From contig LT635913.1 of the NCBI GenBank assembly GCA_900128565.1, positions 47,196-67,195 of the forward strand: a stretch of DNA of 20,000 nucleotides, read 5' to 3'. Made by a program: the position numbers and the translations under genes. The notes below the pieces were generated by a model. That model was not told where the DNA came from. It made no database searches and saw only the letters and a program-made list of their open reading frames with translations. Origin of the DNA: Stramenopiles sp. TOSAG23-6. Taxonomy: Eukaryota. Within the stretch, counting starts at the first letter, position 1. Each line of letters begins with the position of its first letter. Of this stretch, positions 1,105 through 20,000 are shown one piece after another.

Positions 1105-1206
1105 AACTTTACTTTTTTCTTTATTTACATCTTAAAGTAAGAGATTTTTATGTAAGAAAAAAATACGTAGAGATTTTGTCTTTTCAATAAATTATGAATA
1201 CAAATA

Positions 1207-1235
1207 GAAAATATTCGAAAATATTCGAAAATATT
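1207..1235. repeat. 10-bp tandem repeat GAAAATATTC, about 3 copies, between convergent genes
   Basis: gaaaatattcgaaaatattcgaaaatatt read directly. Confidence 0.8.
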
Positions 1236-1280
1236 GATTCAAAAGTTTTATTTCTTTTAAAAATATTGAGAAACCACTTG

Positions 1281-2891
1281 CTACTTTTTGACTGAACTTT
1301 GCTTATTCGTTCGGAAAACAGTATCTAGATTTTTCTTTCCAGCGGGCGTCAAATTGGGATATATACACATTCTCATTTGTTCTTGAAATACTTTCTTTTG
1401 ATCGTCCGTCAACAATGGATACAGACTAGTCCTCTGCTTCCTGAAGTATTCATTCACACGTCTTCTGCTGAAAAGAAATCCACGATTTTTGCTGTTCAAA
1501 TCTGACAGCTTGGAGTACATTACTTTCATTCTTTTCGAATCTGCAGTGATTCTTTCGTTCAGCTTTTTCAATTTTGTTGCTTCTTGATCCAGCATCAATT
1601 TCATTTCTAATCTCGCTTTTTTTTGGTGATACGCTAACTTTGACTTCATATCTTTATTCTTTTCGTTAATGATATTAAAGAGACATGAATTAAGAATTTT
1701 CATACGCGAATCATTATTACCGCTATATCCATTATTATTATTATTATTACCATTTGATATTTGTGAAATTCGGCGTTTCTTATTGCTTCCATTAGAATTC
1801 TTCTTGGTTTCACTCATTAAAAAGGCAAGCACACCTTCAATATCATTCTTTAAATTAAATTTCTTTGAACGTCCTGAATAATATGGCGCAGTTGCCAAAT
1901 GTTTACTTATTCCTTCTATACATCTTTCTTGTAATGAAGCTAAAACATTATTCGGCTTTTTCTTACCTTGAAGAATCCATTCATTTCCAGCTTGAGGATA
2001 TCTAAATACGCAGTTTAGCATTTTTAATGCTGTGCCACAATCCAATGATGGCATCATAGTAGGATTTGCAACTCTACTGATAAATTCTGCATTGACCTCT
2101 TCATTATGTAAATTTCTAGAACAATACTCAGAAACTACACGACAAATAGCATAGGATTTTCCTGAATAATAAACTTTCCAATATTTTTTATCATTAGCAT
2201 ATTGTTCAATAATTTTCCAGATCTCAAGAAATAATGGAACAGAGAACTTGCAAATTAAATTTATTGGCGCTTCGAGTTCTTTCATCTCGTAAGTCACATA
2301 ACGCGCACAGCCTGGCGCCGTCGTTGTCGTCGACAACGACAAGCAACGAAATTCTAATAAAGATTGTGCAGTTTTTTTTAGTGCTACTGCTAAAAGCTTT
2401 TCTAAGGAATAAACACAGGCTTCTTTCACATATACAACTGCGTTATACTCGGTACAAATATCTTTTTCCATAAATGCAGTGGTTGCTTTATCAAGCTCAC
2501 GGCATCTAAGATATTGAGCAAGATAAAACAAAGGAACCACGTTTTCTGTTGTTGCCTTAAATGTACCATGATAAACAAAATTAAGAAGAGAAGGAAATGC
2601 GGTGACAGCTGATTGTTTCATAACCAGTTTGCTTTCATTTCTCCGATTTTCAGAAAACGAATCATTTTTTAATAACGTCGAAAAATACTCTAGTCGACGC
2701 GCCCCTCCTGCAATAACGTTTTGGTGACAATGATATGATGTGCCAATATCATCACTCCCTTCAGTTTCGACTATAATTGTCCAGTTTGAAAAGCAATCAG
2801 ATTCATCCGTGTGCCAAGTAAGCATAAGCTTTTCTTCAGGAGGATCATCAAAATGGGTGAATCCTCCAAAATCATTTGATTCATTTGACAT
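1281..2891 (-). CDS. BTB/POZ domain protein with C-terminal coiled-coil
   Basis: 536 aa ORF with BTB-like motifs (YHCHQNVIA, YFSTLL, AFPSLLNFVYHG, VVPLFYLAQYL). Confidence 0.75.
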   Translation of the reverse strand: MSNESNDFGGFTHFDDPPEEKLMLTWHTDESDCFSNWTIIVETEGSDDIGTSYHCHQNVIAGGARRLEYFSTLLKNDSFSENRRNESKLVMKQSAVTAFPSLLNFVYHGTFKATTENVVPLFYLAQYLRCRELDKATTAFMEKDICTEYNAVVYVKEACVYSLEKLLAVALKKTAQSLLEFRCLSLSTTTTAPGCARYVTYEMKELEAPINLICKFSVPLFLEIWKIIEQYANDKKYWKVYYSGKSYAICRVVSEYCSRNLHNEEVNAEFISRVANPTMMPSLDCGTALKMLNCVFRYPQAGNEWILQGKKKPNNVLASLQERCIEGISKHLATAPYYSGRSKKFNLKNDIEGVLAFLMSETKKNSNGSNKKRRISQISNGNNNNNNGYSGNNDSRMKILNSCLFNIINEKNKDMKSKLAYHQKKARLEMKLMLDQEATKLKKLNERITADSKRMKVMYSKLSDLNSKNRGFLFSRRRVNEYFRKQRTSLYPLLTDDQKKVFQEQMRMCIYPNLTPAGKKNLDTVFRTNKQSSVKK

Positions 2892-3505
2892 TTTCTTTTA
2901 AATAATTGCGTGTAAGAAGAACGTAAAGAAGTGTAACCGGTAATGTTTAGCTATTGTACTAAGAGAATCTTATCCTTGATCTGATGATTGACCGAATCAG
3001 ATTCTTTCAAATGAAACTGAATTGAAAAAAACCTCCGATCAAGAAAGTTCTCAGTCCATTTAGGAAATTTTAGATAACAACAAACAACAACTGTAGTATC
3101 TTTACAATTATCTAAAACGTTTCAGCGAACGTTATTCAACGATTACTTAGTTCATTGTTCACTTACATCAATTATATTTCCTACAAATTCACGATTATCT
3201 TACTCAAACGGGTGAGACACTAAAGAGAAACCATCTCGGGCTTACAGTCCTCGGTAGGTCAACGCCCAAGAAGGCTCGGACGCAGGCCAATTATTACAAG
3301 ACAAAACAAGAACACTCCAGTAGTTTCATCTTCTGGAAGAGTTACCCGTAGTCAATCTAAATCCACTACTATAAAGCGTGCTCGGGTTGATTCACCTGTA
3401 TTGAATATACGAAATACTCGGAGAAGAAAAAGTAAAAAACAAAAGCAACGGCCTAGTTCAGCTTCAGCAACGTCGAAGACTAAAAAAAGATCAAAACGGG
3501 CAGAT

Positions 3506-5716
3506 ATGAAAAATGGAAAAGAAACTTCTGAAGCCTCTACATCTACAAAAATCAAAATGAAAAAGTTTCAAAGTAAATCAAATATTGTGTCCAGCGATGG
3601 GTACTTGACAGTTTCACCTTCAAATTCTTCTACTGGAAATTCGTCAGCTGATCATGTAGAATTTAAAGTGCAAGCACCTGAACTCATTCGTATAGTCCTC
3701 CAAGGCTTGTCGGAGTTAGGCTATTACAAAACTGCGGAAACTCTCTCTAACGAGTCAGGTGTAACAATTCACTCTGAACAAATGGCGCTATTTCGTAGAA
3801 GTATTTTAGACGGGGATTGGACTCTTTGTTTAGAATTGATACCTCATTTAAAATTTTCTCAAACTTCTCAGTCTTCTCAAACCTCACAAATTGAGTTGGC
3901 TCGTTTTTTTATATTAAGAGAAAAGTATCTTGAACTTTTAGAACAAAAGAAAACCACAGAAGCCATCAAATGCCTTCGAACAGAACTGTCTGAGAGTTCA
4001 TTACATAATTCCTCTAAACAAAATTCTGCTGTTCAGGACAACAATGCAGCAATTAGATTTGGTGACCAAAGTTGTTCTCAAATGTTTGATAGTTGTCAAT
4101 CATCAACTGTATTGAACAGCTCAAGATTAAAAACCCTATCCCCTTTGGTTTTGTGTAGTACTAAAAAGGATTTATTGCTCAAGGCCAAATGGGCAGGTAC
4201 AGAAGGCGGGTCTCGTATACATTTATTAAACAAATTCAATACTATATTGCAGCATTCAACCTTAGTACCAGAAAGTCGTCTTCGTACATTACTAGGTCAA
4301 TCATTACAAAATCAAATTGGAAAATCGTTATACCGTAGACCGAGGCATCAGCCATATTCCCTTTTGAATAATAACAAATGCATGCCACCTAAATTACCTA
4401 CACGGGCTGTGTGTGTTTTAGAGGAGCATAATAATGAAGTTTGGCATATAGAGTTTTCAAAAGATAGCAACAAAATGTGTTCATCATCGAAAGATGGTAC
4501 GACTATAATCTGGGATACAAGAGCTATTAAAAACGATCAATTTACTAAAGGATTTTTGCCTGTTCCTATACTTCATAAGCTAAAGCCTCACGAGACAAAA
4601 GATATACCAGTGATGTTTTCAACATGGAGCCCAGACGATTTACTGATTGTGACTTGTCATGGAGATGGAAGCGTCTATCTTTGGGATGCGCTATCAGGTG
4701 ATACTCGGTATAAATTAGTCGGTCATACATCTGCTGTAATATCAGCAGCTTGGCTTCCTGACGGGAAAAGTTTAGTCACAGGTGGAATTGATAAAAAAAT
4801 TATACTATGGGAAATAACGGAAAATATTCCTTCACCTCAAAATGATGTTACTATTAATATCATGAGTAATACACCTAATGGTACAACAAATGAAACAACA
4901 AATGAAACAACAAATGATACAACAAATGATACAACAAATGATACAACAAATGAAACAACAAATGAAACAACAAATGAAACAACAAATGGTACAACAAATG
5001 GTACAACAAATGAAACAACAAATGATACAACAAATGATACAACAAATGATACAACAAATGATACAACAAATGATACAACTGATGGTAATATTACAGATAC
5101 ATCACAGAGTTCAAGTTCATCATTTGATACTGAGTTAGCAGATGTTGGAGAGTTGGTTGAAGGGACAGAAAATATACCAAGTTCAAGCAACATAAGAATA
5201 ATTTCTCCAACATACTTGTGGTTAGGTGTTCAAGTGAATGACATTGTTTTAAATCATTCTGGGACTTCTGTGATAGTAGCAGGTTGCAATAATCAGGTGT
5301 ATATGTATAATTTAGTAAACCGCCAGAAAAAATCTGAAAGTTTTATAAAGGAAAGTGGGTCCGTCATGTCAATGAAATTGACTGATGATGGTCGTTATCT
5401 TTTGTTAGCTATTGCAAATAAAGATATACAAGTTTGGGATATACAAAAGCGCAAGTATGTACTAAACTTTAAGGGTCCTCGCTTAGGCCGGTATGTCATT
5501 CATTTTGCACTGGGTGGTGAAGGACAGTGCTTACTAGCATCTGGTAGTGAAGATTCTCAAATTTATTTATGGTATCGAATTACGGGTACTCCTCTTTCAG
5601 TGTTATCTGGACATGCAGCAACGGTGAATTGTGTGTCATGGGCAACAGTGGATTCAGGAAAATCACCTATATTAGCTAGTTGCAGTGATGATCATACCGT
5701 TCGCATTTGGCGATGA
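3506..5716 (+). CDS. WDR26: WDR26/GID7-like LisH-CTLH-WD40 subunit of the CTLH/GID E3 ligase
   Basis: LisH (ELIRIVLQGLSELGYYKTAETLSNESG), CTLH (FRRSILDGDW, ILREKYLELLE), VPESRLRTLL, WD40 repeats (HNNEVWHIEFS, ASGSEDSQIYLW, LASCSDDHTVRIW). First ATG is at 3506 but the frame is open from 3224. Confidence 0.88.
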   Translation: MKNGKETSEASTSTKIKMKKFQSKSNIVSSDGYLTVSPSNSSTGNSSADHVEFKVQAPELIRIVLQGLSELGYYKTAETLSNESGVTIHSEQMALFRRSILDGDWTLCLELIPHLKFSQTSQSSQTSQIELARFFILREKYLELLEQKKTTEAIKCLRTELSESSLHNSSKQNSAVQDNNAAIRFGDQSCSQMFDSCQSSTVLNSSRLKTLSPLVLCSTKKDLLLKAKWAGTEGGSRIHLLNKFNTILQHSTLVPESRLRTLLGQSLQNQIGKSLYRRPRHQPYSLLNNNKCMPPKLPTRAVCVLEEHNNEVWHIEFSKDSNKMCSSSKDGTTIIWDTRAIKNDQFTKGFLPVPILHKLKPHETKDIPVMFSTWSPDDLLIVTCHGDGSVYLWDALSGDTRYKLVGHTSAVISAAWLPDGKSLVTGGIDKKIILWEITENIPSPQNDVTINIMSNTPNGTTNETTNETTNDTTNDTTNDTTNETTNETTNETTNGTTNGTTNETTNDTTNDTTNDTTNDTTNDTTDGNITDTSQSSSSSFDTELADVGELVEGTENIPSSSNIRIISPTYLWLGVQVNDIVLNHSGTSVIVAGCNNQVYMYNLVNRQKKSESFIKESGSVMSMKLTDDGRYLLLAIANKDIQVWDIQKRKYVLNFKGPRLGRYVIHFALGGEGQCLLASGSEDSQIYLWYRITGTPLSVLSGHAATVNCVSWATVDSGKSPILASCSDDHTVRIWR
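4877..5080 (+). repeat. Coding 12-bp minisatellite AATGAW/AATGGT-ACAACA, 17 copies, encoding N[D/E/G]TT
   Basis: 17 units counted from the translation, inserted between WD40 repeats. Confidence 0.95.
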
Positions 5717-5830
5717 GATTTTTAAGTGTTTATGTTCAATATTGAAAAATTAAAAAAAAAATTCATAAATATTATTTTGAATCAACTACTATTTACTAAC
5801 ATTTATATTTCCAGGTTAAAATTTACATTA

Positions 5831-6550
5831 CTAAGAAACAGTTTCATTATTTTTTTCAGTGTTTTTTTCTACTTCTGTAACTATGTCACTTCCTTCAGTC
5901 TCTACATTTTCTCTCTTTGAAGACACAGTTTTCTTACCTCTGAAATCTTTAATTCTTGGAAATTGTGCAGACGCTACGGTATTACTGATGGTGTAACCAA
6001 ATACAGTTGGCGTGTACGATATATCCAATTTAGGGGGTACATATTCGGGATATGACATAAGCAAGAAATGTGGGAAAGAGCAACCGAAATACGCTCCATC
6101 TACATACCTTGCTGCTACTGTCATTGGTGGAACAAACACATCCTGACATTTAGGACAGTATACCATAACCCTTTGTTCTCCAGGAATATCAGATAACCCC
6201 ACGGGCAGGACAGGATAGTTATTACACAATATACGTGGACAATTGCCAAAATCCTCATTCTTAAACTTCTTAAACATAAGTTGCTGACCGTGCGTCGTCA
6301 ATAGAAAACGAGCGTGTATACGACCGTAAAGGTCCATACACTCTTTACGACTCCATTCCTCTCGGTTCCAGTCATCTGAAGAAGAGTCTGAGTTTACATA
6401 ATCGAGAATAATATTGAGGCACTCTGCAAAGTTATGTACTTCAAGGGAAAGTCCATATAGGTTAAAACGACTCTCGATAAAAGAACGATCTACTTGACAG
6501 AAAAAATCGTGGCCCTCCATAGAGCCAAACCACTGAATCCAGTCCGCCAT
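5831..6550 (-). CDS. CSNK2B: Casein kinase II regulatory subunit beta
   Basis: WIQWF..GHDFFCQVD..FNLYGL, LYGRIHARF, FGNCPRILC, YCPKCQDVF, DGAYFGCSFPH. No introns. Confidence 0.95.
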   Translation of the reverse strand: MADWIQWFGSMEGHDFFCQVDRSFIESRFNLYGLSLEVHNFAECLNIILDYVNSDSSSDDWNREEWSRKECMDLYGRIHARFLLTTHGQQLMFKKFKNEDFGNCPRILCNNYPVLPVGLSDIPGEQRVMVYCPKCQDVFVPPMTVAARYVDGAYFGCSFPHFLLMSYPEYVPPKLDISYTPTVFGYTISNTVASAQFPRIKDFRGKKTVSSKRENVETEGSDIVTEVEKNTEKNNETVS

Positions 6551-7003
6551 TAGCCCAAAGAATAAATATACGTATACTGTACAAACGATTCAATACCTCA
6601 CTGATAAATATGGGCACAACACAGTGTGATAATAGCTTGCCTTAATCTCGATTAATATTATTATAAAAGGGTCCACCCTCTTTAGGTCTTGCCACACTCC
6701 TGATTATTGTTCGATACTCCCGATATATAATATAAACCGCGATATAGTATCTCACCTCGAGAGCTCGCTCAAAAAAAATCGAATGTTTCAAACACGAAAT
6801 ATTTAGTATTATTGTACAAAAAAAAATTGAAGCTGACTCTCACAATCTAAATCGTTCTTCAATCAAGAATACTACGCGAATACGACTACGGTAGCTATTT
6901 TACTAGCCTACGTAGCTACAAGTACTAAATTCCTAGTTTAGTATTACAAAAGCGCTTGAAAGATCCTGTACAATTATCGAAATTATTCCTTGTAAAAGAT
7001 AGA

Positions 7004-7822
7004 ATGTTTTTAATGCGTTCTAGATATTTAGTGCATTGTATGCGTATTTCTACTCCATTTGCGCGTCGAAGGAATAGGTTATTTATATCATCCAGCAGCT
7101 ATTTCGACCGCAATTTTAGTATTTTTCCGGATAATAAAAAAGAGAAAGATAATCTTTCTACAAAACAAGAGCATGACACTCTTGATCAAGAGAAGTTTTA
7201 TACAATGGGTCCATTACGCATTCGTGCTGTAAACGTGAACCTCCCAAATGCTCTGACAATAGCACGCATTCTTGCTTCACCTCCTTTATCTGTGTTATAT
7301 TTACAAGGTTATTACAAGAGTGCCTTTTTTTTATTCATGTCTGCTGGTGCGTGCGATTTTTGGGATGGTTATCTAGCTAGAAAATGGAACCAACAAACTG
7401 TGTTGGGTGCTATGCTTGATCCAGTTTCCGATAAAATTCTAGTCGCAGCATTAGCCTTGCCTATGGCGTATGACGGTACTTTACCAATATGGCTTGTCAC
7501 TTTAATTATAGGACGTGACGTTGGTCTTGTTGCTGGTGGTTTCTGGCATCGCTTTCGAACAAAACAGCGTGATGAATTTCTATTTGATACAAAAAGAGTG
7601 AATTGGACTGTGGAACCAACATTTGTAAGTAAGTGTAATACAGCTGGTTTAATTGCACTTGTAAGTTTTGGCTTAACAAATAGTGCATTTTCTTTACCTG
7701 GTGATTTTCTTATACAATGGATGTCGTATGGAGTAGGTTGTACTACTGCTTGGTCTGCTGTCGAGTATATTAATATGTTTGTAAAGAATGACGCTTTCAA
7801 AGATCGAAAGCGAGTCGATTAA
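7004..7822 (+). CDS. CRLS1: Cardiolipin synthase (CDP-alcohol phosphatidyltransferase family), probably mitochondrial
   Basis: NLPNALTIARI, DFWDGYLARKWNQQTVLGAMLDPVSDK, EPTFVSKCNT; Arg-rich N-terminus resembles a presequence. Confidence 0.82.
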   Translation: MFLMRSRYLVHCMRISTPFARRRNRLFISSSSYFDRNFSIFPDNKKEKDNLSTKQEHDTLDQEKFYTMGPLRIRAVNVNLPNALTIARILASPPLSVLYLQGYYKSAFFLFMSAGACDFWDGYLARKWNQQTVLGAMLDPVSDKILVAALALPMAYDGTLPIWLVTLIIGRDVGLVAGGFWHRFRTKQRDEFLFDTKRVNWTVEPTFVSKCNTAGLIALVSFGLTNSAFSLPGDFLIQWMSYGVGCTTAWSAVEYINMFVKNDAFKDRKRVD

Positions 7823-7883
7823 AATGATGAATTTAAATATAGTAAAATTTTGAGACTAGAAACGAAAAATAATTTTTAAAAAT

Positions 7884-9950
7884 TTATAAATTAATAGTCG
7901 TCAACTCTGTGCCGTCATCGTCCATATCACACTGCGGTTCATCCATATTTCCATGAAGTCTGACATGAACATCATCAGTGTATAATATTTCCGAGTTTGG
8001 CATTTTATCCGAACTCTCTAAGGAATCACTTGGTCGGCCTAAAGGTACTAAATATGGAATGAGAAGTATTGGAAGTAATCTTGTTAAACTGCGGGTCAAA
8101 ACAAGCAACTCAATATTATGAAATTCAGGAGCACGAACACCTCCAAAGACTTCCAATAGCCCAACTCCAACATATCCTCCAATGACAGAACCAAAATTTG
8201 AAAGGCCCATTGTCATTGCAAAAAGTGTTGCCTCCATTTTTGGTGGGCATAATTTTGCTGCTAGAATAAAAACTGGCATTGTATTAAATCGACTTATTAA
8301 AGGGGATATAACTTCTTCGCCTAGCATGAAAGCTTTATCTGATATTCCAAGACTTTTGTTCCAACGTTGAACCCAAATAAGATCCATGTATTGTGAAAAA
8401 AAAATGTTTTAGTATAAAAAATCCATAGGTACGAAATTTCATACCAACAAGAAAAAACAATTAAATTCATTTTTCAAAACGTACATGAGATTGACAAATA
8501 CAAGTGCCAGTTGAGTCATTGCAAAGATTTTTCTGTATGGCCATGAACTAAAATATCTATTGTATAACGCCGTCCCAATGACAAAAAAAATATTTCCTAG
8601 AACGCCAAACCAGGAGTGAATAATGTGAAAAAATATTTTTTTTGTCAAGAAAAATGTTAGGTACAAAATTTTTATGGTAAAAAATGAATGAAAATTCAAT
8701 TTTGAAACCATACATAATTTAGGTGAAAAACAGGGACGTTCTCCATAGACCCCATTACAATTTTCTGGGGTTTCTTTTGACCAGTAGTAGATAACTTCTG
8801 AATATGGTTGCATTGCTCCTTGTAAGAAGATATAAATTGTTACTTGAGCTAATACAGGATTGATTTTAGATTCATAGTAATGTATAACGTAGCAAACAAC
8901 TACAGCAATGAGTATACTAAATATACATATTACTGAATTATCAGATACAATAGAAGCAAAACCACCCTTTTCTGAAGAACATATTTTGTATAGTTTGATA
9001 TTTGTTAGGTACAGAATTTGGTATAAAATTTAGGTAAAACATTCATGATGAAAACATACCATTGTCAAAGATATAGCACAAACAAATAAAGCCATTTTGA
9101 TCATCACGCCTTGTTTACCATTATTAATTGCATCTTTTAAAGGTTGAATATTTGAACATTTTCTATACGGAGGTTTGTCACGCTCTTCGGGTAGCCATCT
9201 TCGCCAAGCAGGAACCAGTACGGCTAGTGCTGGTATAACACATAAACCGAGAAGGACACGGCTACCAAACCATTCATAAAGAATTCCAGAAGAACAACCA
9301 GCAAAAATTTGACCAATTCCTAAAGACCCCCAGCATAACGTCTGCAAATCAGCGGCATATTTTGGGCGTTCACGACATCTTTTAGCGACAGATGCATCGA
9401 TCATTACATCAGGGGATGCGATGGAGTAATTAAACATAATCAATAATATTGTAACTATTGCAATGCCCAACCCAGGAGAAAAGGCAAATGATAGAGTTGA
9501 AAATACTCCTGAAAATCCAGCTATACCAATATATGGAGACAGGTGAAGTCCTGAAATTGGAAGTGTATCACTCAATACACCATACATAGATTTAAGTTGC
9601 CATGGAATGTTCCCCACTCCTGACACAACCTGCATTCTATCGGAAGATAGTCCAAGCCCTTTGTGCATTGTTGATTCCGTATCAGAGAGCAGATACCGCA
9701 TTGCGAAGAATCCCCAACCTTCACCAATTCCTTGGTTCACACCATACACAGCAACGACAGAAAGCACAAAATATAGACCGAATGTTCTCGTTAACCGGGA
9801 AAAATATTTGGCCAGCGTACAAGGAAAAAACATTACATAGTCCACGAATTCTGGATTAACAGGAAGTGTATGAAAGTCACGTATACTTGAATCCATACTT
9901 TGGTCTAAATCAAGGCTATCATCTGTCAATGGATCAAACTTTTGGTCCAT
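7884..9950 (-). CDS. BT1-family folate/biopterin transporter; inferred exons 9950-9060, 8966-8714, 8617-8485, 8385-7884
   Basis: PWQLKSMYGVLSDTLPI, ASPDVMIDA, LQTLCWG, GISDKAF, MPVFILAAKLCPPKMEATLFAMTMGLSNFG. The frame is continuous after removing 3 family introns. Confidence 0.88.
8386..8484 (-). mobile_element. Introner-like intron A, 99 nt, GT-AT
   Basis: ctcat|GTACGT...TTCACAATACAT|ggat restores NLMDLIWVQRW; no AG inside; CATG direct repeat at the junctions. Confidence 0.8.
8618..8713 (-). mobile_element. Introner-like intron B, 96 nt, GT-TC (boundary less certain)
   Basis: ttat|GTATGG...TTTTGTACCTAAC...TTCACATTATTC|actcc gives FSPKLYSWFG; in frame and stop-free. Confidence 0.65.
8967..9059 (-). 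mobile_element. Introner-like intron C, 93 nt, canonical GT-AG
   Basis: atg|GTATGT...CTGTACCTAAC...TTCAGAAAAG|ggt restores LTMGGFAS. Confidence 0.8.
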
Positions 9951-10224
9951 TGAGTGTGCTGTATTGGCAGAGTTGATATAATTATAACTTAGGCATTTGA
10001 ATGATATTAACAAGTCATAAAAAATAAAATTGACAGCATGCGCAAAAAAGTAATTATTCGTGTTTTTTTTTTCTGTTAGGACTTCGACTTGACTACTTCG
10101 GTCAAAGGTATTATATATTACCCAGCTAGGGTTATAGTGTCTCTCGAATTCTTGCTCTAAACACACTTCTCTTCACACACTTCTATACCTGTCGAAAAAA
10201 TATTTATCTTAATCTTTTTATATA

Positions 10225-11031
10225 ATGGGCAAACGTGACGAAAATTCTCTCACTAGTACGAAAGACTCGTCAAGCATGGAAGATTCTAATGGTCGTGCAT
10301 TGAAGAAACAAAAGATGAGCAAAAGCGATGCGCCGCCCATCAAGGTAAAGGTCGATGCTCCTACGGCTTCACCTGGAATAGTGTCTTCGACGGTAAATAC
10401 GGCAACCCCCCCAATAACGCCCTCTAAAGTTACAGATGAGAACAATGAAGACAAAAACAAAGTAAATACAAATATAGATTCAACCAAACCTTCAACTGTA
10501 TTATCCGAATCACAGTGTAAACTTGCGCAGTTCCAGGGTTGGTGGAAACTCGACGTTCAAGCGTCCGAAACTATGAAACCATACCTGGAAACGCTTGGTT
10601 TGAGCGCTACGGCTGTCAAAGCCGCATTAAAAACAGAAACAGAATTCCCATCATTTATTCAATTTAAAGTAACGCCGAAAGAAGTTACTATCAAGCGGAA
10701 GTCCAGACTAAGTAGGCCATCGGATGAAAAAGTAGGTATAAATTATAAGTTGGGTATGACAACCTCTTCAGAAACAAAATACGGACAAGTGATTTCAAAT
10801 GCTACAATTCTTAAAGGTGGTATTCTAAATGTATCTGAAACTAGAAAAGTAAATGGCGAAAAAATTAAATTAAGTAGTCAACGAAAGCTTTTGGAGACAA
10901 AAGGAAATACTTTTAACGTAATTGAACAAATAATTACACTTCATCATATCGGTAATAAAGTGACTGTTACTACAAAGAGAATTTGGCGTAGGCAAAGGAG
11001 AGACTCATCGAATATATTTGTCGCGAGTTAA
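10225..11031 (+). CDS. Calycin/FABP-like beta-barrel protein with low-complexity N-terminus
   Basis: FQGWWKLDVQASETMKPYLETLGL resembles the FABP N-terminal GxW motif; beta-strand-rich, ending TKRIWRR. Confidence 0.55.
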   Translation: MGKRDENSLTSTKDSSSMEDSNGRALKKQKMSKSDAPPIKVKVDAPTASPGIVSSTVNTATPPITPSKVTDENNEDKNKVNTNIDSTKPSTVLSESQCKLAQFQGWWKLDVQASETMKPYLETLGLSATAVKAALKTETEFPSFIQFKVTPKEVTIKRKSRLSRPSDEKVGINYKLGMTTSSETKYGQVISNATILKGGILNVSETRKVNGEKIKLSSQRKLLETKGNTFNVIEQIITLHHIGNKVTVTTKRIWRRQRRDSSNIFVAS

Positions 11032-11158
11032 AATGTATCAATAGTTAGTATGTGGAGAAATTCCTTAAATATTTATTTAGTACTTTTATATAATTTACTA
11101 CTAAAATATAAATGAAAAAACATTTTTTTTTTACTTTTCATAGTTTTCAAAAGTTGTG

Positions 11159-12607
11159 TCATTTCATATCCGTTAGTATTCTATTTATATAATTCATCAT
11201 TTTCCGAAGACTTCTGCGACTGGATTTTTTTCGCGGTTCAAGGTTATCTTCCAACTCATTTTTGATGAATTTTAGTTTTTTATTTAACCAATCTGTAGAC
11301 GCACCACGCCATTCCGAATGAGAAGAACAGTATAACAATAAACCTGAGTTTTTGTTATTTTTATAATTTTTCATGGTAGAGACAGTAGACGTTGACGCAG
11401 CTGCATTCAAACAACCATTACAAAGTAAAACTAATGACCGACATAACTCACAACGACCTGTGTGTCTATCATAAGTTTCATTGGGAAACGCACAATATTC
11501 ACATTTTCCAATTATAGTGGGTTTCTTCTGGATCTGTTGATGCCTTTTTCTCTTTTTTGTGGTATCAGATGAAATATTATCTACACAATCGTTTGATACT
11601 GGACGTGCAATACCACGCCCATCAAATGTGAAATTACTGCCGCGGAAAAGACCATGTTGCCATATTTCTTTTTCTTCGACACTTTCATCTTTTTCGTTGC
11701 ATTCATGTTGACAATTTTCTATTTTTTTTTGATTTTTTGTTTTTTTCTCACAGATTTTTTTATCCGTACCATTACCTTTTACACGATTACATGCGAATGA
11801 TTCTAAATATCGATGAATTCCACCCTTAAGCTGAAACACATCTTCTACGCCGTGTCTTTTCATAAGAGCAGAGGCTGTCTCACAACGGATGCCACCTGTA
11901 CAATACATTGCTACTCTTTTATTCTTCAAGTTTAATTTAGAAGCATTTTCATCTAACCATTGAGGAAATGCAGCAAAATTTCGCGTGTTTGGTAAAATTA
12001 CTTCTGCGCCTTTTGCCTTTGCGGTGTCCCCAACAGAAAAGTTACCTATACGCCATTCGTATGGATTTCTACAATCTATTACACATAATGGTTTTTTACT
12101 TGAATTTGTGCCAAAATTCGTATCTAATGGTTGATGAAGATTTGTTTCATTAGAAAATTTGAAATCTCCTGTATCTAATAGAGAATGCCACTCTTGAGGG
12201 GACAAATGAATACCGGCAGTGTTACTTTTCAAATCAATAGGGGTTTGCATTCCGAGAGAGCATATTTCTTTGACAACTCGACATCGTAACTTTTTACCCT
12301 CAAAATGCACTGAAGCATCAGGTCCATCACTTTCACTGAGTTTCCAATCAATATTAGTTGATTCAAATAAGGACATATCTTCTGTTTGTCTCATGTACTC
12401 ATATATATTCGCTGAAGTTCCACCAACTGTACCATTTATACCCCGACGACTAATCCGAATACGCCCAGCTAAAGATAGTTTTGCACACAAAGCTGTCTGA
12501 GCTGAAGCAACTGCGGCAGGATCATTCACTTCCGTGTATAAATAATATAAACAAACTAGTCCATTTTTAATAGATTCATTTGTAATGTTCGAACAAGAAC
12601 CTGTCAT
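11159..12607 (-). CDS. TSTD2: TSTD2/TrhO(YceA)-like rhodanese-domain protein
   Basis: LYYLY, LAGRIRISRRGINGTVGG, HLSPQEW, IDCRNPYE, MYCTGGIRCE, VFQLKGGIHRYLE, C-terminal Cys cluster. Confidence 0.88.
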   Translation of the reverse strand: MTGSCSNITNESIKNGLVCLYYLYTEVNDPAAVASAQTALCAKLSLAGRIRISRRGINGTVGGTSANIYEYMRQTEDMSLFESTNIDWKLSESDGPDASVHFEGKKLRCRVVKEICSLGMQTPIDLKSNTAGIHLSPQEWHSLLDTGDFKFSNETNLHQPLDTNFGTNSSKKPLCVIDCRNPYEWRIGNFSVGDTAKAKGAEVILPNTRNFAAFPQWLDENASKLNLKNKRVAMYCTGGIRCETASALMKRHGVEDVFQLKGGIHRYLESFACNRVKGNGTDKKICEKKTKNQKKIENCQHECNEKDESVEEKEIWQHGLFRGSNFTFDGRGIARPVSNDCVDNISSDTTKKRKRHQQIQKKPTIIGKCEYCAFPNETYDRHTGRCELCRSLVLLCNGCLNAAASTSTVSTMKNYKNNKNSGLLLYCSSHSEWRGASTDWLNKKLKFIKNELEDNLEPRKKSSRRSLRKMMNYINRILTDMK

Positions 12608-12969
12608 TACTAAAACTAATACGTAATAATTTAATAAAGTCCAAAGCTGCTTGCGTGTGAAAAATCTTCTTGATTGACTTGTCGTGCTGAATTCTTCTTC
12701 AGATGGCCTTCAGATGATTTGATTTTGATTTATTTCGTGTGTGTCAATAAAACGGTTAAATAACGGCTGGACAGTAGTATATATTATTGGCTACAGGGTA
12801 CCCCTACACTACTGCTGTAGTACACGTAGGCACCGCATTACTTCTACTACTGATACAAGAACTATTACAAAACGCACATTAAATTTACAATATATCTCTA
12901 GCTAAAACGCCCATATAGCATTAGATTGAGATTATTTTGCAGAAACTTTACGTTTGATATTTTACATAA

Positions 12970-13524
12970 ATGTCAAAGTTTGGGTCACACACGAAAAACG
13001 CATTTCCTTTAGATACACCGTCTGTATTCTATGTCGTTGGTGCTACATCACACGATCCTCTACATCCTCCGGAATATGCCATGACAATGATACCAAATAA
13101 TATAGGTACAAAGTCATCAGTATCAAAACAGAATACTATGAAAAAACAATCTCAAACAAGTGGGAAATTCTGGTCAACTACTGGTGGCTTTCCACAGGAA
13201 ATTATCTTAGAGACTGAGGAGTTATGCAAAGTGCACTCATTGAAACTTGCCACAACAGGTGCTGCTTACTTAACTATACGGTTATATCCTGAATCTCATA
13301 ATTGTAATGAGGTAGCGATGAGTGTTGTCACTCTTGAGAAATCAGAGCCCTTCAATGTCGGATTCCCTCGTCTACAACGTAAAATAGTTCACTTTTCAGA
13401 CCAACCACCTTGCCGTAGAATTAAAATAGTAATAGAAAAAGTATACAATCAATTTGCGACATTGAGTGATGTACACGTAAATAGTTCACCAATTGAAAGT
13501 ATAGAAGAAACAGGAGTAAAATAA
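12970..13524 (+). CDS. IFT25: Intraflagellar transport protein 25 (HSPB11)-like
   Basis: ATSHDPLHPPE, FWSTTGGFPQEIIL, IKIVIEKVYNQFATLSDV. Confidence 0.75.
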   Translation: MSKFGSHTKNAFPLDTPSVFYVVGATSHDPLHPPEYAMTMIPNNIGTKSSVSKQNTMKKQSQTSGKFWSTTGGFPQEIILETEELCKVHSLKLATTGAAYLTIRLYPESHNCNEVAMSVVTLEKSEPFNVGFPRLQRKIVHFSDQPPCRRIKIVIEKVYNQFATLSDVHVNSSPIESIEETGVK

Positions 13525-13678
13525 TAAAAGGAACTATCTTTTTTAATCATATTCTACTTTTTCACTTGTAATAGCCCTAAATTCACAATAAAAACACTTA
13601 TTCAGTAAAATAGCACAGTTTTTCCGATGCTTGAAGTGTTTCGTATTACTACCACACACGCTTGTTACTCCGTTGTAC

Positions 13679-16600
13679 TTACCAAGTTGCTTCACTTGGG
13701 TATTTTCTGTTATTCGTCACTATATTTTGCCTCGCGGATTCCATGATGTTAAGCTGTTGTTTTTCCAGAGTTATCTTGCGAATCCGAGCAGCTGCTGTAC
13801 TGCCATCCCTATTTTGTTTCATTCCGCATATAGAACAACCTTTACTAGGTAAAATATGGGAAGGATTAATAAAGGTACATGTATTTTGGAAAAATATTTC
13901 AAAAACAAAAAACTTGTTAGGTACAAAATTTCGTACGAAAAATAAATTCTAAAAAAAAATAAAACATACATGTGTTACATTTCCATGGTGCATTTTGTTT
14001 TTCTGTATTATCACTATGCCAAACACTTGTTGCGCTTTTCTTCTTCGGTATACTTTTCCATGATTTTATGGAGATGTTGGAAAGATTTGCATTATTTTCA
14101 TCATTTAGATGACTTTGATATTGAAAATTCGAGGTTTGAAAATGTTCACTACTTCTGATATAATTTTCCATCATAGACGATTTTTCATTAGCTTGTATTG
14201 TAGAGGGATGACGACTATTATTAGAATTGAACGTATTCATGCCAGATGATTCGAAATTATTACTTGTTTTTTTTTGGATCGAATGACGCGGGAAACTGCA
14301 CAATTCACATTTTGTTGCATCACGATTAAAATTCTCATATGTACACATTTTACAAACCCAATCGGAGGAGGTAGAAGAAAAGGAAACCATGGAGTTACAT
14401 CTCCCATCAATTATATCTAATTCTGAATCATCATCGCGTGTATACGCTGCTTGTACTTGCTGTAATTGTTCTTCTGCGGCCGCCGCTAATGCTTTCAATT
14501 TTCTTGTTTCATCGTCAGCTTTCTTTGCGGCTATGCGATTTTCATATTCAATGCGTTCTTGTTCAATACGACGTTCTTGTTCAATACGACGTTCTTGTTC
14601 AATACGACGTTCTTCTTCAATGCGACGTTCTTCTTCAATACGACGTTCTTCTTCAATACGACGTTCNAGTTCAAGACGCTCTTGTTCAATACGTTGTTCA
14701 ATACGTTGTTGTTCAAGACGTTTCTGTTCAATATTCTGAGATAACACAAAGTCCAAAGTCTCGTTTGCAACATCTGCACATTCGCGACAAGCTGCATTAG
14801 CACAAATAACAGCAGTATAAGCAGCAGATGCCGCGTTGACACAAAAGGTCTCATTATCAAGAGAATTTGTATTATCAAACTCATTAGCAGCATTGATCAT
14901 TTGCAGAGTTCCATTTTTAAATTGGTAAGATTTTGAAGGAGTAATCATCAAAGAATTATTGGCATCATTTACTGCAGCATATTGATCATCATGAAAAGTA
15001 TTGATTACTTCATTCTGTTTAAATATATTTGTATCATCTTTCAATTCTTGTTTCGATCCTTCCAGTGAAACTGTAGCTTTATCTTGTGGTTGTCTTGTAA
15101 TAATATTTGATTCAACGGCTGTTGATTTCCATACATTTTTACTATATGTAGCAGCCTTCGGCAAAGTAGTTGCTTTCTTTCTCCATGAATCTATTTCTGA
15201 TCGTCCTACGGTTTGTTCTATAGGGTTTCTTGGAAAGTATGTATTGTGAAAAAATATTTCAAAAAAAAATGTTAGGTATAAAATTTCGTACCAAAAAAAA
15301 ACTAGATTTGAAATTCATGATGGAAATGTACATAGCGGTTTAGAAATTCTTGCAGTTGTACTAGAATGTTTCTCTCGTTGGCTAGGACGTTTGGAAGATA
15401 TAGGTGGATAATTTACATTGTTGACTCCATTCGTGTATTTCGTGTATTTTTTTTTTGTTGTTGATGTTGTACTGATTGAAGTTGTTGACGATGAGGCAGA
15501 GTTTATATCGTTCACTTTCGCTCGAGGGACCAAATTTGATTGAGATACAGTATTAGAAGTTGCTGATGTCACAGGTACATCTGGATTCCTTTGAAGAATT
15601 TCACACACCATTTCAATAGCACGAATGCATGTATTGTGAAAAATATTTTTTTTTAGTTACAAAAATCGTTAGGTACAAAATTTGGTACGAAAACAAAAAT
15701 CAGGTAGAAAAGGGATGATGGAAATGTACATGCATTAGATGATGGTCCTTTGACAACAAGTTCATTAAGACCTTTGTACATTGGTTTTGATGACTCTTGT
15801 ACAGCTAGAGAAGTACCTGCATTGTAAAAAAAATAGAAATTAGAAATTCGTTAGGTACAAAATTTTCTAGTAAAAAAAATTAAATCTAAAATTCATAATT
15901 AAAGAGTACCAGTCTCTCGCATAATACGTTTGATGTTGCAACCTGAGGTACCTATTACAGTACCACGCTCTCTTGCAGTAAGTGAATGAAATGGTATGTA
16001 GGAAGCAAACCTTTGCAAAAATTCTGTGGCTTTTGTATGAGCGGCTTGAACTGCCGTGTCTGTACCCGTTATTGTAGCGATGAAAGTTTTCCGGTCAATT
16101 GAATAAGTTGCACCTGTTTCATCTTGAATTCGTTGTATTGTCGCACCTCCAGGACCAATGAATTTAAGCATTTTTTCAAGTGAGCCAAATTCAAACGTTT
16201 TCTGTGAAGATGACATTGGGCGGGGTTTCTTTTGAGATTGTGAGTTTCGTTTGACTGGAGCAACAACAGTTTTTAATGGTACCTTACGAGCTCGTGTGTA
16301 TGAAGGAAGGACTCCACTCTTCCCCCAGGCACTCCGCACTATTCTAGGCTTAGGATGAGATTGATTTGACAAGCCACCATCATCTATATTTGATGTTGTG
16401 ATGGATTTGACTGAATCGATGTTAGATCTACAATAAGGACAACTAGCTGCCTGTTTCTTTGCTAGAAAGGTCTGACGCCAGCTAGATAAACACCCATCGC
16501 AGAATTGATGACGGCACGGTCCTATTTCCACATCAACCAGATTAACCGTACAAACAATACATATGCCTTCAGAATCACTCTCCATACAACTGTTAATTTT

Positions 16601-16738
16601 ATCATCATCCAGATATGGCTTTATTGCAGAAGAATTGAACTGAGGTGGTAAGTGATTATTGTCAGATATGCCTTCAACTTCAAGATTCATAGATGTGAAC
16701 TTTCGTCTGAAAGACAAAGGCTCAGAAAAAGTGCTCAT
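13679..16738 (-). CDS. RING finger + 2 KH + coiled-coil + 2 RanBP2-type zinc finger protein; inferred exons 16738-15910, 15816-15730, 15628-15332, 15238-13970, 13878-13679
   Basis: C3HC4 RING (CIVC..PCRHQFCDGC..CPYCR); KH1 (FIGPGGATIQRIQDETGA); KH2 (VIGTSGCNIKRIMRETG..LVVKGP..CIRAIEMVCEIL) completed across 2 introns; zinc fingers WVCKMCTYEN..CELC and WKCNTCTFIN..CSIC. Confidence 0.85.
13879..13969 (-). mobile_element. Introner-like intron D, 91 nt, GT-AT
   Basis: acat|GTATGT...TCGTACGAAATTTTGTACCTAAC...CAAAATACAT|gtacc restores WKCNTCTFIN; 7-bp direct repeat ACATGTA. Confidence 0.87.
14545..14730 (-). repeat. Coding 18-bp repeat encoding (E[Q/E]ERRI)n charged helix
   Basis: Repeated ttcaatacgacgttcttg/c units; translation RRIEEERRIEQE...; contains one N. 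Confidence 0.9.
15239..15331 (-). mobile_element. Introner-like intron E, 93 nt, GT-AT
   Basis: ctat|GTACAT...TATACCTAAC...TTCACAATACAT|acttt; contains an in-frame TGA and removal joins two same-frame ORFs. Confidence 0.78.
15629..15729 (-). mobile_element. Introner-like intron F, 101 nt, GT-AT
   Basis: gcat|GTACAT...TTTTGTACCTAAC...TTCACAATACAT|gcatt restores the KH helix NACIRAIEMV. Confidence 0.85.
15817..15909 (-). mobile_element. Introner-like intron G, 93 nt, canonical GT-AG
   Basis: actg|GTACTC...TTTTGTACCTAAC...TTTACAATGCAG|gtact restores RETGTSLAV. Confidence 0.88.
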
Positions 16739-17027
16739 GATCTTTTGAATACGCTAAGGTAATGTTGTATGTTTTCTTTGTGATGGAAATAAATCAATTT
16801 AATGAAATATTTGTGACTTTTTAATCTTTGAGAATAGTCGATGATCCCGTCGCAAATGCACACTATTCGTATTGGCCACCATTCGTTGAAAATGTCATAC
16901 ATACACTTTGAAGTCAAAAAATCCAATTTAGAACAAACACGAAATATTTCACAAAATCAGATAATTTTCAAAATTGTTTATTTTGTAATACGTTTGTTTC
17001 TATCAAGAGAAGTCGCAAATGAATAAT

Positions 17028-18923
17028 TTATTCCTTCATCGCCCGAGGAGATGTAGTGATTACGCTTAATTCAACATAAGATTTTGGCGCATTTCCTTCA
17101 GTCATAGTTTTATCAAAATGCATATTTCTTGGAGATTTTGCACTGCTTGATGACACATGTATTGTGAAAAANATATTTTTTTTTNGNTTNAAAAANTNCG
17201 TNAGGTACAAAATTTAGTATGAAAAACAATGTAGTAAAAGATTCAATTTAAAAAAACGTACAAGATTTGTCTTTGTATTTTCTGCTCTCCAAAAGAACTT
17301 TGGTGGAGTTGCACCATGATCTTCAATATGGAAAATTTCATATTGGGTAAGTAAAATTGCTATAATCCCAAGAAGTGTTGCAACAGCTAAAGTTATAAAA
17401 ATGATACTCCAGCCCCAATCACCTTGAAGAATTGGACCCACAAACATTTTGAGGAATATTGCAGAGACAAGCATAGAAATAAAATCCAAAAAACAACTCA
17501 CCAAGCCCGTTTTCCGACCACCAAATTGTACAGCAAACATTCCAGGCACTAAATAATACGACACGGAAATTCCAGCGGAGCAAACGAATATGAGAACAGT
17601 TTTCAGTATAACCAAATCTAATTTTTCTGGATCTGAAATTCCAGGAGCGGAGAGAAACGCTAGCGCAAGTAAAGCGAGTATTGAAATTACTGAAAGCCCA
17701 GCACACATTCTCATTTGGTTTCCACGAGTTAAACGACCATGTACTGTAAAAAACTATTTAAAAAATAAAATTGTTAGGTACAAAATTTCGTACGAAAAAT
17801 AAATAAATTTGAAATTCATGATGAAACCGTACATACACACGACCAAATATAGCAACACCAATAAATAAACCTGCTTGAAAAAACATACCCAGACTGGCCG
17901 CTTCGCCATCCGTGAGTAAAGCACTGTGAAAAATATTCCAAGTTGAAAATTGGTTAGGTACAAAATTTTCAATGAAAAAAAATCTGAAGTGAATGATAAA
18001 AACGAACAGGTTCGTGCCTGTATCGAAAAATAGAGAGGTACTAATTGACCCATTCTTTTTGTTAGGGTCAATAAACACATTCCAGATGTTGCTATAAGAA
18101 ATCGCCCATCTAGAAGAATAGTCATTGCAATCATAAATTCTTCAAAGATTGTCGTTTTCGAAGTGGTTGATGCCGTAGTATCGAGATTTTGTTCAGTTTT
18201 TTGTTTTTCTATCGAAGTTTTATCTGAACTTTTCACAGCTGATGATGTATTTTCATTCAAAGTATTCGATTTCTCCGTATTACCTGATTCTATATTAACT
18301 ACCACATTTGTGTCGTTTGAATCATCCTTTTTTTCTGAGGGTTTGTCATTAAGAGTAATGAACCCAACTATTGCGTTACACACTGTTATAGCAGCCGCAA
18401 TCTGGAGACAAACGCGCCAGTTAAAAGACTCCTGCAAATTACCGTAAAACACTTTAGAAAACATATCACCAGCACGACTTGACATAGAAAGAGACCAGAA
18501 AGCATCCGGAAGTTCTGCAGCAGTAAACCAACCACGAATGATTACTGCGCAAGCTGGCCATACAGGGCTTCCAAAAATTTCAAGAATCGTTGCTGACAAG
18601 ACAATATCATTCAATGAATTAGCAATCGATAACATAAATAAAACTATGGTCATCGTACATAAACCAATTGTTACACTACGAGCTCCACCCGCATAATCAA
18701 TAAAGAAACCGCTTGTTATTTTACCAAATGCCGAGCCGAGGGTTTGTGCAGCTAAAATCGTCGAACATCGCGCTTTATCAAAACCAATTTCTTTGGACAT
18801 TGCTGCATACAGAGGTGGTGGTGCATTTAAGCCCACAATAAACATAGAGTATACACCAAATAGTAAGATAGATATCCATGTTGATGTTTTCACACTTTTG
18901 TTATCTTTTTGCGAGTCCGACAT
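17028..18923 (-). CDS. Major facilitator superfamily transporter; inferred exons 18923-18008, 17918-17833, 17738-17262, 17156-17028
   Basis: GKITSGFFIDYAG (motif A-like), WPACAVIIRGWF, SRAGD, two hydrophobic halves with a central hydrophilic loop, YYLVPGMFAVQFGG. Confidence 0.85.
17157..17261 (-). mobile_element. Introner-like intron H, 105 nt, GT-AT
   Basis: ctt|GTACGT...TTTTGTACCTNAC...TTCACAATACAT|gtg joins in frame to the terminal exon; several Ns inside. Confidence 0.72.
17739..17832 (-). mobile_element. Introner-like intron I, 94 nt, GT-AT (alternative in-frame TAG 15 nt upstream)
   Basis: tat|GTACGG...TCGTACGAAATTTTGTACCTAAC...TTTACAGTACAT|ggt gives FGRVYGRLTR. Confidence 0.75.
17919..18007 (-). 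mobile_element. Introner-like intron J, 89 nt, GT-TT (boundary less certain)
   Basis: acct|GTTCGT...TTTTGTACCTAAC...TTCACAGTGCTT|tactc is needed to enter the LTDGEAASLG helix frame. Confidence 0.62.
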
Positions 18924-19232: not shown

Positions 19233-19946
19233 ATGTATGAAGCTACAACTTTTTCATGTATTTTATTGCTTCCTTGTTTGATTTTGGCTGCAAATATTCC
19301 ATCAAATTGGGAGAGTGATACTGAGGAATCTTTCACGTTACCGCTTGGTGGGCCAAATAAAAATGCAAAATTTGTGACTGTAGATCGCAGAAAGAATCTT
19401 TCGCCGGAAGAGTTTTACGAACAGTATGCAAAAAAAGGCATTCCTGTGGTTGTAACAGATGTTATGGAGTACTTTCCTGATGAATGGAAGAACCGTGTGC
19501 GAACAACTTTTGAAAGTATTACTATAAATGAGTTACGTAAAATTAGTCCTGACACATCTTGGGGCATAAAAGGCTCAATCGACGTTTTTGTAGTTATTGC
19601 ACGCAATATTATGATAATACGTGTTTTTATAGTATCATTATTTTTTCATTTGTAAAAAAATTGATATATTGTTTAAATTATATGGGAGATTACTACCTGA
19701 CCTTAATTTGCCTGAAAAACCTTATTTCAGTAAGTTTGACTCAGTAGATGAGTCTGCAGATATTTTTAGCCAACAACCTGGCCTGGTGTTTTGGGCACAG
19801 GAAGGGATTCCATTCGGTGGGTATGCACATATTGATGATTCATGCAATTCATCATTTTCAATGCAATTTATAGGTAACAAAAAATGGTATTTGTGGCCAC
19901 CAAATTGGCCACCAAATATAGAAAACAAAAAAGATGGAAACACGGT
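19233..19946 (+). CDS. JmjC/cupin-like dioxygenase with probable signal peptide (3' truncated)
   Basis: LSPEEFYEQYAKKGIPVVVTD, then in another frame AHIDD..SMQFIGNKKWYLWPP. The frames could be joined by a GT-AG intron at 19584-19632. Confidence 0.72.
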
Positions 19947-20000
19947 GTACGTTTTCATTATGAATTTCAAATTTATTTTTTTTTTCGTACGAAATTTTGT
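19947..20000 (+). mobile_element. Introner-like intron K (5' part, cut by window end)
   Basis: GTACGTTTTCATTATGAATTTCAAATTTATTTT..TCGTACGAAATTTTGT, closely matching the start of intron I, on the + strand in a + strand gene. Confidence 0.82.

Follow-up and report, generated by a model that had tools for sequence, protein, structure and literature searches.

A repeated intron family, apparently introner-like, with predominantly non-AG frame-restoring 3' ends in a stramenopile

Described systems and the present locus

The terminal AG of introns is among the most constant signals of eukaryotic gene expression, and only a handful of lineages (Fritillaria, Amoebophrya and some euglenozoans) break this rule at scale, each of them informative on how the spliceosome reads intron ends and on how mobile elements create introns. 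We describe here a family of repeated introns in a 20,000-nucleotide (nt) stretch of contig LT635913.1 of Stramenopiles sp. TOSAG23-6 (hereafter the window), in which eleven copies (A to K, Table 1) were found, ten of them complete. With the 5' end fixed at an invariant GT and the 3' end taken as the position that restores the reading frame, the final dinucleotides of the ten complete copies are AT in six (A, D, E, F, H and I), TC in one (B), TT in one (J) and AG in two (C and G); this tally and the coordinates behind it exactly reproduce those from which a first-pass annotation of the window had proposed an intron system largely without the AG acceptor. The family looks introner-like, a nature that the annotation did not spell out, and U2-type rather than U12-type. 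That it is excised at its own ends by a U2-type spliceosome, in the GT-AT register, is a reading to which, taken as a whole, we give about an even chance.

The introns of Fritillaria borealis are many, short and species-specific, have an origin resembling that of miniature inverted-repeat transposable elements, and are removed by a modified major spliceosome in which duplicated U2AF subunits read the non-canonical 3' ends (PMC13326754). The family in the window shares with them a non-AG 3' end that repeats bases of the preceding exon. However, the Fritillaria introns have AG-AC or AG-AT ends and have lost the donor GT, whereas here GT is retained in all eleven copies and essentially one base is changed; moreover, the host there is a tunicate and here a stramenopile protist. 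Amoebophrya, a parasitic dinoflagellate, also has repeated introns with inverted-repeat ends and with direct repeats at the junctions (3–5 nt in Amoebophrya) that make the cut ambiguous. In contrast to the present family, in which GT and the branch site are fixed and the end is mostly CAT, its introns show no dominant terminal dinucleotide, and U1 was not found. The nonconventional introns of euglenids and hemistasiid diplonemids are likewise similar in their non-canonical borders, paired ends and repeat-like junctions, but they have no donor, branch-site or polypyrimidine signals, all of which are kept here, and in euglenids the pairing involves positions +4 to +6 and −8 to −6 rather than the very ends.

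The introners of Micromonas, Aureococcus, Chrysochromulina, Florenciella and other organisms resemble the family in that one intron sequence is found in many genes in sense orientation; the element brings one of the two splice sites, and part of the other comes from the insertion site (PMC9860276, PMC11282704). The mark by which introners are recognized, near-identical introns in unrelated genes, is present in the window (11 copies in four genes within 12 kilobases, kb). The described introners have GY-AG ends and the survey that reported them was built on annotated introns, whereas eight of the ten complete introns here lack AG. Literature searches, supplements aside, on introners or non-canonical introns in MAST-3, stramenopiles or Incisomonas returned no report of such a family; in the available parts of two genome papers on the lineage introns are mentioned only in the methods or not at all, and the available main text of the introner survey, its supplementary tables aside, contains no such term.

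A stramenopile system in which only the last base has changed, donor and branch site being retained, would isolate in a simple form the recognition events of the second splicing step (U2AF35, Prp8, Slu7/Prp18 and the pairing of the first and last bases). There is also a practical consequence, in that gene finders bound to GT-AG mis-model genes with family introns, and protein sets of abundant uncultured grazers, together with introner surveys built on GY-AG annotation, would miss or distort such genes.

The intron family and its junctions

A family profile search identified the 11 copies with E values of 9e-21 to 4e-8, the ten complete ones on the minus strand and K, truncated where the window stops, on the plus strand; three further rows of the search, none better than E 0.1, represent noise. 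When up to two mismatches are allowed, the core motif TTTGTACCTAAC has 11 occurrences where 2.4 would be expected, and none of 200 shuffles contained 11; nine of the occurrences each fall in a different copy, another is an additional site in F and the last lies outside the family. Matches to the core motif in metagenome, prokaryote-genome and viral contigs (118, 120 and 28 stretches; 266 loci) were set aside as chance hits rather than family members, because there the family profile recovered nothing beyond the seeded motif (best E 1.7e-4). The complete copies are 89–105 nt long and share the consensus yAT/GTAYGTTTTcATcATGAATTT...TTTTcGTAcGAAATTTTGTACCTAAC...U-rich...TTTTTCACAATACAT/g (slashes mark the junctions). 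H contains seven N (window positions 17172–17202), and its length and the unusual TT before its GT are accordingly uncertain. All 11 copies are sense to their host gene and none is intergenic or antisense (orientation alone, p=5e-4), and removal of the ten complete introns yields open frames of 592, 893 and 535 amino acids (aa). The family introns, in four host genes, all lie in the right-hand 12 kb, between 8386 and 20000; the left-hand 8 kb (1–8380), with six genes, is free of family introns.

The first-pass description of donor and branch site as U2-like holds, as both motifs are present. GTAYGT matches the U2-type donor, and the branch site TACCTAAC (CCTAAC) is found in nine of the ten complete copies, A having CCTATG plus TACTAAAAC further on. 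The branch adenosine lies 33–44 nt from the 3' end and is followed by a U-rich stretch. Donor, branch site and polypyrimidine tract thus agree with U2-type GT-AG introns, but the AG end does so in only 2 of 10 copies. Chance cannot account for the prevalence of AT as the final two bases (at least six of the eight non-AG copies, p=3e-5), and, as had been noted, the alignment of copy G with the AT copies holds base for base, AT occupying the position of the AG of G. The 3' part of C is diverged, and its AG is not clearly at the family consensus position. In nine of the ten copies the last base of the intron equals the last base of the exon (T/T in seven, G/G in two; Fisher p=0.022), which suggests that the insertion site supplies the last intron base; the copies with G there are the canonical ones.

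Comparison with homologs supports several of the non-canonical junctions. In gene 1, removal of A rejoins a conserved DLIWVxRWN block without gaps against six homologs (6 of 37 matches aligned), and the sole in-frame GT-AG alternatives delete this block. Removal of B keeps CFSP, nine further residues and G at the spacing found in all 15 CFS-form homologs (36 homologs were scanned, of which 19 match the pattern, 15 of them in the CFS form, and the other 17 do not match); the only GT-AG alternative deletes PCFSP. The junction of C, SLTM/GG, fits the homologs and is also used in the public gene model P0002. At A and B, that model has forced GT-AG sites and reads into intron A. P0002 is devoid of the conserved DLIWVQRWN and PCFSP blocks because GT-AG was forced at these two introns, and the loss looks like a consequence of their non-canonical ends.

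In gene 2, removal of D restores a second finger, W-x-C-x2-C-x3-N...C-x2-C, spaced like the first (itself a sub-threshold Zn_ribbon_RanBP match, E 0.0019, below the Pfam cut-off), and every GT/GC-AG alternative destroys the finger spacing. F has no in-frame GT/GC-AG pair at all within 45 nt of either end. The junction of G falls inside a KH-like G-x-x-G...TG segment, read by eye from the sequence and unscored. In gene 3, the spliced product at I is gap-free against 12 of 12 homologs, with an aromatic residue opposite the junction tyrosine in all 12, and at J it has the spacing of 9 of 12 homologs, two having one residue more and one having two more (the alignment contains 12 full-length relatives from the top 16 matches, the four fragments P0045, P0047, P0053 and P0054 having been dropped). 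Canonical alternatives for I lose two to three residues or add three to five, and the only one for J (GTTTTT..CAG) adds three residues, beyond the range seen in the relatives. H has frame support only, its junction falling in a C-terminal tail that is not conserved. Exactly 5 nt before the homolog-supported junction, at a position where other copies have CAA, C, I and J carry a CAG; splicing from the family GT to this CAG would change the reading frame. On the spacing of homologs and domains, the non-AG ends of A, B, D, I and J are thus supported as real junctions.

Register and mode of excision

Excision at the ends of the family restores the reading frame and the spacing seen in homologs; that the spliceosome performs it we infer. 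In the proposed mechanism, a single intron sequence of 89–105 nt would have been copied into many unrelated coding sites, each copy bringing a yeast-like donor (GTAYGT), the branch site TACCTAAC, a U-rich stretch and the 3' block TTTTTCACAATACAT. The pre-mRNA would be cut at the family's own ends, with the major (U2-type) spliceosome reading GT and branch site as usual and the second step accepting CA plus any final base, mostly T (CAT) and sometimes G (CAG), a base that would equal the last one of the upstream exon as if it came from the insertion site. Somewhat short of an even chance, in our judgement, is the specific proposal that the major spliceosome of this free-living marine stramenopile lineage has been freed of the need for a final G and cuts after CA+N, 33–44 nt from a strong branch site and past upstream AGs. 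Between branch site and end, A, B, E, F and H are free of AG, and D has a single AG adjoining the branch site. If the proposal is correct, such a rule would have let mobile introns that take their last base from the insertion site spread through coding sequence, and would represent an independent and simpler route than that of Fritillaria, with GT retained and the 3' rule alone relaxed.

Several features favor GT-AT as the catalytic register, to which we give about an even chance. Every one of the 11 copies has GT, whereas AT directly precedes it in six; the penultimate base in the GT register is A in 8 of 10 copies, both AG copies included; CAT lines up with the CAG of copy G; H admits no AT-AC reading; and J, at its homolog-backed length, has no GT-AG or AT-AC reading, only GT-TT or TG-CT (read as CT-GC it would give a different mRNA and the same protein).

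Transcript data bear mainly on E, RNA contigs having been compared over 7800–17171, the part of the window that holds A to G. Only short contigs were found on exons. A 260-nt contig from a poly(A) run (X3, record 22) matches 15332–15570 from its letter 20 onward, and the match begins exactly at the predicted exon edge, 15332, and not 5 nt further as in the GC-AG alternative; this edge gives weak support to splicing at E. A 151-nt contig from another run (X2, record 16) covers 15110–15260 unspliced, extending 22 nt into the intron. It shows AT, and the AT letters at E are therefore not an assembly error, a possibility that the first-pass annotation had put forward for checking. Two runs of one sample, X1 and X2, have 674 and 672 contigs on the stretch, with depth concentrated in the family-intron bins (noted at 13876–13982, 15239–15334 and 15627–15732), which indicates a very high abundance of the family there. 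The summed depth of the two runs is in the thousands in the intron D bin, with very little on exons, and may reflect either a very high copy number of the family or an abundance of excised introns or of DNA in the libraries. A backward joint from 15333 to 15272 (the branch adenosine) was considered as a lariat read and rejected, as 33 other letters lie between its two sides.

Several points weigh against excision in the GT-AT register by the major spliceosome. No exon-exon joint across a family intron is present among the 15 of 32 joints listed for 7800–17171, all 15 of which link different family copies and represent repeat cross-mapping, and the X3 contig at E was seen from its letter 20 on, the 19 letters before it being those expected on the next exon. 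Two upstream AGs would have to be skipped in I and one in J. G first with U last is reportedly not among the pairs known for the second step of U2-type splicing, on the 1993 work of Parker and Siliciano. GT-AT ends are otherwise known only as rare single cases and in U12-type introns (PMC1557818). In A, D, E, F and I (five of the eight non-AG copies) AT precedes GT and the intron ends in ACAT; GT..AT and the AT..AC reading 2 nt upstream give identical mRNA in these five, and DNA alone cannot distinguish them. Finally, in B the register that starts with AT (−2) encodes phenylalanine, as in 14 of 15 homologs (tyrosine in one), and the GT register leucine. The first-pass proposal of a spliceosome tolerant of non-AG acceptors, or of a pathway dedicated to the family, remains the leading reading in view of the homology-backed ends of A, B, D, I and J and of the U2-like donor and branch motif. 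It had not considered the AT-AC equivalence of five of the eight introns, however, and of the RNA evidence for which it called, the contig edge at E is weakly favorable and a spliced junction was not seen among the joints listed.

The reading that competes best, which we consider possible but on balance unlikely, is that most family introns are AT-AC introns cut 2 nt upstream of GT (ATGTAY...ATAC/AT), with an A-first/C-last pair, a combination that ordinary spliceosomes can process; B would then be AT-AT, H and J decayed or differently spliced, and the exonic AT a duplicate of the insertion site. Beyond the −2 register with identical mRNA that is open to five of the eight, AT before GT in 6 of 11 copies exceeds expectation (p=3.7e-4), and B, the only intron with a register-dependent residue in a conserved block, gives the phenylalanine of most homologs only when it starts with AT. 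U2-type AT-AC introns occur naturally, an engineered AT-AC intron is spliced in yeast (PMC5029451, PMC1557818), and AT-AT and AT-AN ends are known variants of U12-type introns (PMC1557818). If shifted, the five introns would combine AT-AC ends with a U2-like architecture, as in U2-type AT-AC (type II) introns. However, U2-type AT-AC introns start with /ATAAGT and U12-type ones with /ATATCCTT, and ATGTAY fits neither, with A at +5 where the type II donor has the expected G (PMC5029451). Type II introns are also singletons (24 among 610,067 introns in five species; PMC1557818), whereas a repeated family is found here.

The AT-AC reading further leaves the intact GTAYGT unexplained, and it misfits H (TT-AC) and J (CT-GC), the length of the latter being backed by 9 of 12 homologs. 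The would-be first exon base is A in 8 of 10 copies, those with GT-AG included, as expected of a penultimate intron base and not of an exon. A U12-type identity would accommodate the ends, since U12-type introns tolerate AT-AC, AT-AN and GT-AT (PMC1557818), but the /RTATCCTT donor (PMC5029451) is absent, the copies starting with GTAYGT or, if shifted, ATGTAY. The branch motif is CCTAAC and not TCCTTAAC, and at 33–44 nt from the end it is too distant for a U12-type intron, in which the branch site lies about 10–20 nt from the 3' end and no polypyrimidine tract follows; here a U-rich tract does.

A second alternative, which seems very unlikely, is that the two intron ends pair and that this pairing, rather than the terminal dinucleotides, directs excision; the exact cut might then move by a few bases inside the junction repeat. 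End pairing has been proposed for the nonconventional introns of euglenids and diplonemids and for the introners of Amoebophrya, and the family introns do end in short inverted repeats of 5–6 nt (ATGTA/TACAT), extended by flanking bases to as many as 10 in F. The minimum-energy structure pairs both ends in six of six folded copies and the centroid in five of six, with fold z-scores of −2.8 for A, −2.7 for D and −3.1 for F. Direct repeats of 0–7 nt overlap the junctions, as in Amoebophrya and euglenids (mean 3.2 nt, against 0.77 for random pairs). However, the helix comprises only 5–6 AU-rich pairs, the z-scores of E, I and G are −0.6, −0.3 and +0.5, so that of the folded copies A, D and F alone fold better than shuffled sequence, and the U2-type signals (donor, branch site and U tract) are all retained, two copies being plain GT-AG introns. 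When ends of different copies are cross-paired the mean repeat is 2.5 nt, and for the six AT copies 3.8 nt within copies against 4.0 nt across them; the junction repeat is thus family consensus and not copy-specific, and on this control a copy-specific target-site duplication was rejected.

The least probable alternative, that the non-AG ends are unused, with cryptic GT/GC-AG sites or retained inserts and a coincidental restoration of frame, or with the genes decaying, could draw on the in-frame GT/GC-AG alternatives of E, I, J and H, on the GT-AG sites of P0002 at A and B and on the RNA contig unspliced into E. Against it, the alternatives for A, B and D would remove conserved motifs, and no alternative exists for F; homolog spacing at I and J is reproduced at the consensus ends only; the GC-AG alternative of E disagrees with the contig edge at 15332; and retention would bring stops or frameshifts into three conserved genes.

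As to origin, the family probably derives from a small mobile element or transposon. From a TG...CA reading of the ends, a Helitron-like blunt insertion between A and T may be envisaged. Immediately before the branch motif, D (13925–13936, −), I (17782–17793, −) and K (19976–19987, +) have in common a perfect 12-nt palindrome, TTTCGTACGAAA. GTAC recurs in the unit at the 5' end, the center and the branch site, and in I also at the 3' end.

Host genes and genomic context

The coordinates of the host genes and of the individual copies are collected in Table 1; the sample comprises the ten complete family introns of this single window.

Table 1. Host genes and family introns in the window (positions are those of the window)
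Feature	Position	Strand	Description
Gene 1, folate-biopterin transporter (BT1)	7884-9950	-	592 aa without C, B and A; Pfam BT1, E 2e-70; homologs
Gene 2, RING/KH/zinc-finger protein	13679-16738	-	893 aa without G, F, E and D; Pfam KH_1 and RING matches in exon 1
Gene 3, major facilitator transporter	17028-18923	-	535 aa without J, I and H; Pfam MFS_1; homologs
A, gene 1, 99 nt	8386-8484	-	GT-AT, or AT-AC shifted 2 nt upstream (8388-8486)
B, gene 1, 96 nt	8618-8713	-	GT-TC; same-length shifts AT-AT (-2) and AT-AC (+2)
C, gene 1, 93 nt	8967-9059	-	Canonical GT-AG
D, gene 2, 91 nt	13879-13969	-	GT-AT or AT-AC; 7-nt repeat ACATGTA at both junctions
E, gene 2, 93 nt	15239-15331	-	GT-AT or AT-AC
F, gene 2, 101 nt	15629-15729	-	GT-AT or AT-AC
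G, gene 2, 93 nt	15817-15909	-	Canonical GT-AG; 6-nt repeat GGTACT at both junctions
H, gene 3, 105 nt	17157-17261	-	GT-AT; TT before GT, no AT-AC reading
I, gene 3, 94 nt	17739-17832	-	GT-AT or AT-AC; TAG and CAG upstream of the end skipped
J, gene 3, 89 nt	17919-18007	-	GT-TT (or TG-CT, same mRNA); CAG 5 nt upstream skipped
K, 5' half of family intron	19947-20000	+	Plus-strand gene at window end; GTACGT start, GT before it; E 3.7e-8

The window is compact and AT-rich (about 35% G+C), of eukaryotic character, and holds about 12 genes. The best database match of gene 1 is identical across the exons and carries an EukProt source label of MAST-3 type, and stramenopiles are the next named matches of the protein; judged from these matches, the host is treated here as a MAST-3-like marine stramenopile. 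Parts of the window are present in four seawater metatranscriptome runs from three studies, at 6–12% of the sampled words in each. An Rfam scan of the window returned no match.

The sole intron of the window outside the family (19532–19690, +) lies in a plus-strand gene without a Pfam match and must change the frame. GT-AG solutions exist for it (e.g. 19532–19688), with several in-frame options; its obvious donor at 19584 has as in-frame partners only non-AG ends or distant AGs. Two protein-coding tandem repeats were also observed. In gene 2, 18-nt units (14536–14700, −, with one N at 14667) encode an (E/Q)RRIE(E/Q) run in the RING/KH protein. In a WD40/LisH-like gene, about 29 in-frame tandem units of 12 nt (4798–5145, +) specify a string of T-T-N-E/D/G repeats lying between propeller blades.

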